Shown: positions 4,329 to 6,476, numbered from the stretch's first letter. The stretch is 6,595 nucleotides of DNA from Escherichia coli (GCF_003334815.1 NZ_QOWO01000068.1), one strand, 5' to 3'. Made by a program: numbers and translations. The notes: generated by a model not told the origin, from the letters alone.

Positions 4329-4736
4329 TTACACGACCTGTACACGTCCGCCGAACCCGGAACGCAACAGAGCTTCGTGGGCATCCCGATCCGGGTCGTA
4401 GCAGCAGTCCTGGACCAAACGCACGTCGTAGTCCGCATCACTAGCCCAGGCGACGCTTGAAAGAACAACGCCGGTGGTGCTTATCCCGGCCATGACAAGC
4501 GTGCTTACGCCGCGCGTCCGAAGGTCGGCGTCGAGCGCCGTGCCATAAAAGACGCTGGCTCGCGGACATGCATAGAAAAGGTCGCCCCGTTCGATCGCAA
4601 GCCCTTCGACGGGCAGACCGGTGCGAAATCGTCCGCTCGGGAGATACGGTGAGATTTGGCGATTCGTCGCCGGCGGCGCATGTTCATACTCTTCGCCGAG
4701 CGAAAAGTTGGGGAACAGCACGGGCCGGCCGCGCAA
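4329..4736 (-). pseudogene. Isochorismatase-family (cysteine-hydrolase superfamily) gene remnant, 5'-truncated; encodes only the C-terminal ~135 aa
   Basis: Translation contains FYGTALDADLRTRGVSTLVMAGISTTGVVLSSVAWASDADYDVRLVQDCCYDPDRDAHEALL, matching the conserved C-terminal core of isochorismatase-like hydrolases. The N-terminal third of such a protein is absent and the 5' end overlaps the tnpA' fragment. The Met at 4736 is probably fortuitous. Confidence 0.5.
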
Positions 4737-6476
4737 GGCGTGCTGGCAGCCGTGCAGACCCTGCGTGAGATGAACGCCGACAACCTGCGCAAGGTGCCGG
4801 CCGATGCACCCACGGCCTTCATCAAGCCGCGCTGGAAGCCGCTGGTGATCACCCCGGAAGGCCTCGACCGGAAATTCTACGAAATCTGCGCCCTGTCCGA
4901 GCTGAAGAACGCCCTGCGCTCCGGCGACATCTGGGTCAAGGGCTCGCGGCAGTTCCGCGACTTCGACGACTACCTGCTGCCGGCCGAGAAGTTCGCCGCA
5001 CTCAAGCGCGAGCAGGCCCTGCCCCTGGCGATCAACCCGAACAGCGACCAGTACCTGGAAGAGCGTTTGCAGCTGCTGGACGAGCAGTTGGCCACCGTCA
5101 CCCGCCTGGCCAAGGACAACGAGCTGCCCGATGCCATCCTCACCGAGTCAGGGCTGAAAATCACCCCGCTGGATGCGGCGGTGCCGGATCGGGCGCAGGC
5201 GCTGATCGACCAAACCAGCCAGTTACTGCCGCGCATCAAGATCACCGAACTGCTGATGGACGTGGACGACTGGACGGGCTTCAGCCGCCACTTCACCCAC
5301 TTGAAGGACGGGGCCGAGGCCAAAGACAGGACGTTGCTGCTGTCCGCAATCCTCGGTGATGCGATCAACCTCGGGCTGACCAAGATGGCCGAGTCGAGCC
5401 CCGGCCTGACCTACGCCAAGCTGTCCTGGCTGCAAGCCTGGCACATCCGCGACGAAACCTATTCGGCGGCCTTGGCCGAGCTGGTCAACCACCAGTATCG
5501 CCACGCCTTTGCCGCCCACTGGGGCGACGGCACGACCTCATCCTCCGATGGCCAGCGCTTCCGCGCGGGTGGCCGGGGCGAGAGCACCGGGCACGTCAAC
5601 CCGAAGTACGGTAGCGAGCCGGGACGGCTGTTCTATACCCATATCTCCGACCAGTACGCGCCGTTCAGCACCCGCGTGGTGAATGTCGGCGTCCGCGATT
5701 CCACCTATGTGCTCGACGGCCTGCTGTACCACGAGTCCGACCTGCGGATCGAGGAGCACTACACCGACACGGCCGGCTTCACCGATCACGTCTTTGCCCT
5801 GATGCACCTGCTAGGCTTCCGCTTCGCGCCGCGCATCCGCGACCTCGGCGAAACCAAGCTGTACGTGCCGCAGGGCGTGCAAGCCTACCCGACGTTGCGC
5901 CCGCTGATCGGCGGCACCCTGAACATCAAGCACGTGCGTGCCCACTGGGACGACATCCTGCGCCTGGCCAGCTCGATCAAGCAGGGCACCGTCACCGCCT
6001 CGCTGATGCTGCGCAAGCTCGGCAGCTACCCGCGCCAGAACGGACTGGCCGTGGCCCTGCGCGAGCTGGGCCGGATCGAGCGCACGCTGTTCATCCTGGA
6101 CTGGCTGCAAAGTGTTGAACTGCGCCGCCGCGTGCATGCCGGCCTGAACAAAGGTGAGGCGCGCAACTCGCTGGCCAGGGCGGTGTTCTTCAACCGCCTT
6201 GGGGAAATCAGGGATCGGAGCTTCGAGCAGCAGCGCTACCGGGCCAGCGGCCTCAACCTGGTGACGGCGGCTATCGTGCTGTGGAACACGGTGTACCTGG
6301 AACGCGCCACCCAGGGGTTGGTCGAGGCCGGCAAGCCGGTGGACGGCGAGCTGCTGCAATTCCTGTCGCCGCTGGGCTGGGAGCACATCAACCTAACCGG
6401 CGATTACGTCTGGCGGCAGAGCCGCAGACTGGAAGACGGGAAGTTTCGGCCCTTACGGATGCCCGGAAAACCTTAG
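4656..6476 (+). CDS. tnpA: Tn3-family (Tn1721/Tn21-subgroup) transposase, 5'-truncated (tnpA'); C-terminal ~600 aa including the catalytic region
   Basis: 606-aa ORF with Tn3-family TnpA C-terminal motifs (...[33 protein letters not shown]...[41 protein letters not shown]...WNTVY...). Its stop TAG at 6474-6476 is embedded in the 38-bp terminal IR. Full-length family members are about 990 aa, so the N-terminal DNA-binding portion is missing. The true 5' homology boundary lies somewhere near 4656-4750. Confidence 0.85.

Follow-up and report, generated by a model that had tools for sequence, protein, structure and literature searches.

A short minus-strand open reading frame (ORF; positions 4329-4736) lies between a pecM-like gene and a truncated transposase gene in an Escherichia coli tet(A) region, which raises the question of whether it is a gene in its own right or the scar of a past recombination event and, if the latter, which parents were joined and how. 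We addressed this question in a stretch of 6,595 nucleotides (GCF_003334815.1, NZ_QOWO01000068.1), hereafter referred to as the window. The ORF list and public annotation place tetR(A) at 1320-1997 on the minus strand and tetA(A) on the plus strand with its end at 3275. These are followed on the minus strand by a gene for a pecM-like EamA/DMT transporter (3307-4191), which the ORF list, the annotation and homologue coverage show to be intact (294 aa, 100% coverage against homologues of 285-300 aa), as an initial inspection of the DNA (the sequence-only reading) had stated. Beyond a spacer (4192-4328, minus strand) come the remnant of a hydrolase gene, which makes up most of the ORF (4329-4730, minus strand), and a truncated plus-strand tnpA of the Tn1721/TnAs1 type (4724-6476). 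The latter runs into the 38-bp terminal inverted repeat of Tn1721 (6472-6509, minus strand; an exact match to GGGGAGCCCGCAGAATTCGGAAAAAATCGTACGCTAAG), which represents the tet-side right end and is the only copy of this repeat in the window, and base 6509 marks the end of homology to all Tn1721/TnAs1 copies. An Rfam scan of the whole window returned no RNA family match.

The surroundings of the ORF belong to a known element. To the left of base 1021, the window contains the IncP-1alpha oriV, with nine IncP oriV iterons at 394-968, and the mer end of Tn21; in pMRY16-002_3, a Tn21-type mer operon is located upstream of the window sequence. Many E. coli and Salmonella plasmids (e.g., NC_022992) contain the entire 6,595 bases at 100% identity, and the window is the 'Tn21 - IncP-1alpha oriV - truncated Tn1721' arrangement described by Venturini et al. 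in pO111-CRL115 and pO26-CRL125 (PMC3817090). Comparison with the Tn1721 copy of pFBAOT6 revealed 100% identity across 1021-6509, the hydrolase/tnpA junction included, and tetR(A), tetA(A), pecM, the 3' tnpA fragment and the 38-bp repeat follow one another in the order that defines the Tn1721 tet module. Compared with the complete Tn1721, two things are missing from the window: the inner right-end repeat and the Tn1722 part (left end, orfI, tnpR and full tnpA), which would adjoin the tet module at 1021. Tn1721, whose sequence dates from 1992 (Allmeier et al., GenBank X61367, as cited in PMC4899885), is usually depicted as truncated tnpA-tetR-tetA(A)-pecM-truncated tnpA (PMC4899885), and published maps leave the interval from pecM to the tnpA fragment unnamed. 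In the open-access literature, to which our search was confined, two papers give the ORF as an 'isochorismatase-like hydrolase' with its truncation unmentioned, and no paper ties Tn1721 to an isochorismatase, nicotinamidase, amidase or cysteine hydrolase or describes the junction.

The 135-aa translation of the ORF, which starts with TTG, matched the Pfam family PF00857 (Isochorismatase; E = 3.6e-16, score 60.2) over ORF residues 43-126. This match is confined to positions 79-162 of the 175 in the model, so that the domain is incomplete, and solved isochorismatase-like hydrolases (BiuH, TrtA, YecD and RutB) matched the ORF in a PDB sequence search, again through its C-terminal part (two thirds) only. 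On the strength of the Pfam and PDB matches, the claim that a minus-strand ORF keeps the C-terminal core of this family holds. A search of approximately 5.8 billion proteins revealed many relatives (182-183 aa, 74-99% identity), whose alignments take in 99-100% of the ORF and which reach about 50 residues beyond it at the N-terminus. Measured against the 183-residue protein, the window hydrolase retains residues 51-183, together with the stop codon, and has lost residues 1-50 (approximately 27%); loss of the N-terminus had been foreseen, but at a third of the protein it was slightly overstated. The frame upstream of the ORF start showed no similarity to the N-termini of the full-length relatives. 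The first two codons of the ORF, TTG and CGC (4736-4731, minus strand), are antisense tnpA, foreign to the original hydrolase gene, which confirms that the 5' end of the ORF meets the tnpA fragment on the opposite strand. When the full-length protein was used as a tblastn query, residues 51-183 were recovered at 100% in other genomes with a Tn1721-type remnant, and database 'proteins' of 150-234 aa from the hydrolase/tnpA site proved to be ORF calls extending into antisense tnpA. RefSeq/PGAP starts the ORF at GTG 4721 and names it 'isochorismatase family cysteine hydrolase' (WP_001351729.1), and the ORF has been annotated automatically in thousands of records.

The intact parent of the hydrolase gene could be identified. 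A metagenome contig of 1,125 bp (L004) holds the full-length gene and is 99.8% identical to window 4147-4730, covering the 3' part of the gene, the spacer and 45 bases at the start of pecM, after which the two sequences diverge abruptly. The 90%-identity cluster of its protein contains a 183-aa protein (P0121) found on 233 contigs, and this protein and a 187-aa call (P0123) are encoded directly beside pecM-tetA(A)-tetR(A) in every context read. These contexts include a genomic island adjoining an integrase and a CBASS operon (L011-L013, L015 and L018), a site adjoining the Tn21 mer end (L014, L016 and L017) and Acinetobacter baumannii loci with the order ssb-trfA-GNAT-GNAT-hydrolase-pecM-tetA-tetR (L019-L022). 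The IncP-1alpha plasmid pB5 likewise carries an intact hydrolase gene, annotated as a 'putative amidase', beside pecM-tetA-tetR. All of these loci are 99.8-100% identical to the window, end this identity exactly at base 4730 and are unrelated beyond it; one of the island loci (L015) matches window 77-4730 with zero differences. The spacer is identical in L004, L011-L022 and pB5 and thus unaltered relative to the intact arrangement, in which pecM is co-directional with the hydrolase gene and lies downstream of it. Full-length homologues therefore exist, with homology stopping at 4730, and the proposal that the tet(A) module carries hydrolase and pecM as passengers is borne out by the intact pair beside tetA(A)-tetR(A) in pB5, A. 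baumannii and other elements.

The intact gene has been annotated in wastewater IncP-1alpha plasmids (PMC11952213). The tetA-trfA regions of pB5, pTB11, pB11 and pSP21 have the tetR-tetA-pecM-hydrolase DNA in common with the window (pB5 at 100% up to 4730). In contrast to the window, pB5-type IncP-1alpha plasmids contain the complete hydrolase gene (183 aa), followed by GNAT acetyltransferase genes and trfA, with no Tn1721 tnpA fragment. In PLSDB, the 5' part that the window has lost was found in two records only, pB5 and an Aliarcobacter plasmid. The DNA that Tn1721 lacks also includes, at the intact locus, a promoter-like sequence (TTGACA-17-TAATAT) placed 85 bp before the hydrolase start.

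The other side of the junction was resolved in the same way. A PLSDB megablast with window 4500-5000 detected at least approximately 2,500 records that span the whole query, i.e., that have the same junction, and other matches, annotated 'Tn3-like element TnAs1 family transposase', that begin only at query position 222 or 225. Two TnAs1-type records (L007 and L008) carry a complete tnpA of 2,967 nt and 988 codons (at 2787-5753 in L007) and are 99.94% identical to window 4721-6509. Relative to these, the window retains tnpA nt 1215-2967, with codons 406-988 whole and the first 405 missing, in a fragment that runs unbroken from the breakpoint to the terminal repeat; no full-length Tn3-family TnpA is encoded in the window. 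A single-base, three-way comparison of the window, L004 and L007/L008 showed identity to the hydrolase parent up to and including base 4730 and unbroken identity to the tnpA parent from base 4724, which is tnpA nucleotide 1215. The seven bases GCCGGCC (4724-4730) are therefore present in both parents, whose flanking sequences are unrelated. In 400,000 trials with random breakpoints in the two parent genes, an overlap of at least 7 bp arose at a frequency of 7.4e-4. No transposon, IS or inverted-repeat end was found at the junction, nor did any relative show an IS or inverted-repeat end at 4731, and the sole Tn1721 repeat in the window is that at 6472-6509. The joint thus has the features of microhomology-mediated illegitimate recombination, namely a short shared stretch, unrelated flanks and no mobile-element end. 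The breakpoint had been predicted at about 4700-4750 and now maps to 4724-4730, where transposase homology begins at 4724, and with both parents and their shared 7 bp in hand, the suggestion of a recombination scar between a truncated hydrolase gene and a truncated tnpA is well founded. The feature itself is unexceptional, being part of the widespread Tn1721 tet module, a known element whose junction is now placed to the base; it is no new kind of feature and is unsurprising to specialists in mobile resistance elements.

On the evidence of the aligned sequences, we consider it very probable that the scar arose by illegitimate, microhomology-mediated recombination, most likely a deletion. The ancestral tet(A) module would have had the order tetR(A)-tetA(A)-pecM-hydrolase (183 aa)-GNAT, which is still intact in pB5-like IncP-1alpha plasmids and other mobile elements. 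RecA-independent recombination at GCCGGCC would then have joined hydrolase codon 51 to tnpA nt 1215-1221 in the opposite orientation, an event that may be placed in the lineage leading to the Tn1721 tet module. The most economical course would be one deletion that began inside the hydrolase gene and ended in a complete Tn1722-like transposon located farther out, on the GNAT/trfA side. Such a deletion would have removed the hydrolase 5' end with any upstream promoter, the intervening DNA, and the transposon left end, tnpR and tnpA nt 1-1214. Left over would be the 3' 59% of tnpA and the 38-bp repeat, which would serve as the outer (tet-side) right end and let the tet module move within Tn1721. 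An intramolecular deletion is favoured because it takes one step and explains why no part of tnpA is missing between the breakpoint and the end of the transposon. Deletion in preference to other end-joining, the order of the events and the non-function of the remnant are what we infer from these comparisons.

It is possible, though in our judgement unlikely, that an already broken or partial tnpA fragment was joined to the hydrolase gene instead, through end-joining of linear DNA or template switching between molecules. The 7-bp microhomology would be equally compatible with intermolecular joining, and a pre-deletion intermediate, in which a suitably oriented Tn1722-like copy would lie beyond an intact hydrolase gene, was not found among the loci examined. 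However, import of a fragment takes more steps than a single intramolecular deletion, and the kept tnpA is unbroken to the terminal repeat, as expected from a former whole transposon. Moreover, loss of DNA at short direct repeats has been documented in this region of RP4 (PMC11952213). The sequence-only reading had spoken of an event that brought in the partial tnpA; the recombination event stands, while the 7-bp microhomology fits a deletion into a complete resident transposon better, with the two readings not separable from these sequences. A truncation linked to transposition, either by intramolecular replicative transposition of a Tn3-family element or by an IS26-type adjacent deletion, is highly improbable, since transposition-linked deletions, although common in resistance regions and exemplified by IS26 truncations of pecM in other plasmids (matches ending at approximately window 4176), start precisely at a transposon or IS end, whereas the junction here lies 1,214 nt inside tnpA with no such end nearby. 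As a separate observation, the Tn3-family element of pB5 was rejected as the parent transposon, being only 63% identical to the tnpA fragment and sitting in pecM.

The deletion favoured here has a counterpart in RP4/RP1/RK2, whose version of this accessory region has independently lost the DNA between 11-nt direct repeats, fusing pecM to orf2 (PMC11952213). The two scars share the use of short direct repeats, of 11 nt in RP4/RP1/RK2 and 7 nt in the window, and differ in their endpoints. The RP4-type deletion takes away the 5' end of pecM, all of the hydrolase gene and a portion of a GNAT gene and produces an in-frame fusion, whereas the fragments in the window lie on opposite strands, so that no fusion protein results. 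The window junction may thus be the second case, after the RP4 pecM-orf2 fusion, of short-repeat deletions shaping the tet(A) accessory region. The flanks of the tet segment also vary among elements. At base 1021, the left flank is the IncP-1alpha oriV in the window and L014-L016, the Tn1721 inner right-end repeat in L005, and a Tn21-type repeat in L011 and L019; the right flank is either the intact hydrolase gene or the Tn1721 junction, and left and right flanks occur in varying combinations. Homologous recombination within the 3.7-kb shared tet segment has evidently reshuffled these flanks, and the order of events is therefore not recoverable from these sequences. The GCCGGCC junction (4724-4730) nevertheless offers a single invariant marker that distinguishes Tn1721-derived tet(A) modules from the IncP-1alpha- or island-type modules with a whole hydrolase gene, and can help to trace resistance regions.

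We then considered what remains of the hydrolase. When the intact protein was modelled with AlphaFold2 (pLDDT = 75.9, pTM = 0.77), strand beta1 (residues 13-18), with which the six-stranded parallel sheet of the family begins, and two helices (22-29 and 37-48) all fell within the lost residues 1-50, and a remnant without these elements should, according to this model, neither fold nor act. A search of window 4100-5000 revealed neither a sigma-70-like promoter nor an intrinsic terminator, and direct reading of the sequence showed no evident ribosome-binding site upstream of the TTG or the internal GTG. The segment 4329-4730 is thus best regarded as a pseudogene that hitchhikes with tet(A). It would be very surprising if the short ORF were instead a working, selected gene, whether as a shortened hydrolase or as a new small protein benefiting the tet module. 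Such a gene might be suspected from an open frame of 130-135 codons that is the same in thousands of plasmids and carried as a PGAP CDS, but it would lack beta1, the central strand of the fold, as well as two helices, have no promoter-like site upstream, and start either at a fortuitous antisense-tnpA codon or at an internal GTG, with no obvious ribosome-binding site. It is also absent from some tet(A) contexts, including RP4 and plasmids whose match stops within pecM. As the remnant shows 100% identity to the intact gene, it offers no decay by which a loss of selection could be confirmed; we take this perfect identity to reflect recent spread rather than selection, and the recent spread of one element would likewise explain the identity across plasmids. 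The RefSeq 'isochorismatase family cysteine hydrolase' of thousands of plasmids would accordingly be a 5'-truncated pseudogene, with intact relatives that themselves appear to lack the catalytic cysteine.

Regarding the source of the passenger genes, we scanned one genome per species from 100,044 species for the hydrolase and read 21 loci. Full-length relatives with at least 83% identity were detected in Hyphomicrobiales only, led by Microvirga puerhi (92%) and Bosea sp. LC85 (91%) and also including Rhizobium, Phyllobacterium and Boseaceae species; the next tier (73-77%) comprised Steroidobacter and Tahibacter. Non-mobile hydrolase loci shared at most 89% nucleotide identity with the window, in the coding region only. 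The closest non-mobile PecM relatives (76-80%) likewise belong to Hyphomicrobiales (Brucella pseudintermedia, Mesorhizobium, Pseudochelatococcus and Pseudaminobacter). These taxonomic distributions support an alphaproteobacterial source for both hydrolase and pecM. The sequence-only reading had proposed that the two genes are a piece of chromosomal DNA from an original host; both are indeed passengers, but no genome examined has non-mobile copies of them adjacent, and their capture as one chromosomal piece is unproven. Within approximately 6 kb of the full-length hydrolase gene, no pecM, tetA, tetR or GNAT gene was present at the scan loci or at the chromosomal loci among four further ones obtained by protein look-ups (two metagenome contigs, Ensifer and Microvirga arabica). 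Conversely, two pecM-like loci (a metagenome contig and B. pseudintermedia) had no hydrolase homologue, and both had a nitroreductase gene upstream. A GNAT gene near the Brucella pecM-like gene was ruled out as an orthologue of the mobile GNAT (32% over 65 aa). If the tet(A) accessory segment (pecM, the hydrolase and perhaps tetA/tetR) was assembled in or captured from Hyphomicrobiales, this would provide a lead on the source of tet(A).

The model of the intact protein has the alpha/beta fold of the family and matched TrtA, BiuH, RutB and YecD in Foldseek (E = 5e-9, TM = 0.70-0.77). BiuH, TrtA, RutB, YecD and PncA have PF00857 in common with it, yet identity is only 17-25% across the matches listed, and none of the NCBIfam equivalogs searched (YecD-like PRK11440, RutB and BiuH) came near its cut-off for the intact protein. 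In the intact subfamily, alignment to YecD (1j2r), 3mcw, BiuH and 3ot4 puts His19, Cys105 and Val138 where the Asp-Lys-Cys triad would be, and His19 is among the residues lost from the window. Judging from these alignments, the name 'cysteine hydrolase' is doubtful for the intact protein. We put forward only tentatively, and as rather improbable, the ideas that the intact 183-aa protein represents a triad-less isochorismatase-fold subfamily, perhaps with a new activity, and that the tet(A) segment has its source in Hyphomicrobiales. If the former is true, the intact protein would not be the usual kind of cysteine hydrolase; under either idea, the window copy would still be a dead remnant. The motifs MHYQxD and DCCxDPD (the latter also given as DCCYDPD) are conserved in the subfamily. 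In a set of 23 members with identities as low as 36%, His19 and Val138 never vary, and Cys105 is replaced by Ser or Ala in the two most distant of these.

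The pecM-hydrolase interval of the tet(A) module ends at varied points among plasmids. In a PLSDB search, matches to window 3900-4760 stopped near 4176 or 4352 in some plasmids, while RP4-like plasmids retained the segment only to ~3947, corresponding to the pecM-orf2 fusion. Judged from these varied end points, the interval was truncated several times in independent events. In the IncP-1alpha plasmid pB5 (L023 2924-6748), pecM is interrupted by a Tn3-family element, which is distinct from Tn1721 (its tnpA is ~63% identical to the Tn1721 fragment). The six bases of window 3524-3529 are found at both flanks of this element and probably represent a target duplication.

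The intact hydrolase gene (P0121; L011 10001-10552), of which window 4329-4730 is the retained part, is co-directional with pecM in the island-type locus L011, and a promoter-like site (TTGACA-17-TAATAT; L011 9888-9916) lies 85 bp upstream of it. The DNA bearing this site is deleted from the window, and no promoter-like site is left upstream of pecM there (4100-5000). The Tn1721 pecM may have been deprived of its native promoter. The hydrolase/tnpA junction has also affected annotation: in a mechanical plus-strand ORF (4656-6476), the reading frame of the tnpA fragment reaches 69 nt into sequence antisense to the hydrolase remnant, and database 'proteins' of 150-234 aa (e.g., P0002 and P0017) result from calling the hydrolase ORF onward into antisense tnpA. 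Both extensions across window 4656-4736, one on each strand, are annotation artefacts made by the junction.

Isochorismatase-like cysteine hydrolases have an Asp-Lys-Cys triad, which is absent from the P0121 subfamily. Here the triad positions are occupied by His19, Cys105, and Val138, of which Val138 is invariant and Cys105 is replaced by Ser or Ala in distant members; the conserved motifs are MHYQxD and DCCxDPD. No NCBIfam equivalog scored above its cut-off against this subfamily, and the PGAP label 'cysteine hydrolase' is probably misleading for it.

The window differs from canonical Tn1721 in its left flank, and is thus not a canonical copy, because bases 1-81 match the terminal part of a Tn21-type mer module and nine IncP oriV iterons (TGACACTTGAGGGGC and variants) lie at 394-968. 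By this arrangement, it is the Tn21 - IncP-1alpha oriV - truncated Tn1721 locus described in pO111-CRL115 (PMC3817090). Comparison of L005, L011, and L019 revealed that a single nucleotide, window 1021, is bordered by two different transposon ends. In pFBAOT6 (L005 8750-8830), this position is abutted by the Tn1721 inner right-end repeat (...GGGCTCCCC), whereas the island-type and A. baumannii loci have a Tn21-type repeat (...GACGACCCC; L011 ~13860, L019 ~13872). The Tn21-type repeat is also present in pFBAOT6, 81 bp further out, and an 81-bp deletion between the two CCCC termini would convert the pFBAOT6-type boundary into the Tn21-type-repeat boundary; this would be another short-repeat deletion.

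One widespread context of the intact GNAT-hydrolase-pecM-tetA-tetR module was found in L011-L013, L015, and L018 (positions 4488-8714), where it adjoins a phage-type integrase and a CBASS-type defence operon containing patatin, DncV-like cyclase, E1/E2-like, and JAB genes. This adjacency suggests that the flanked module belongs to a genomic island. In every context seen, the tet segment is accompanied by an ORF of 80 aa that lies between tetR and the 1021 boundary (window 1046-1288, plus strand); RefSeq labels it 'transposase' (WP_000844627.1), and other records label it 'hypothetical protein'.
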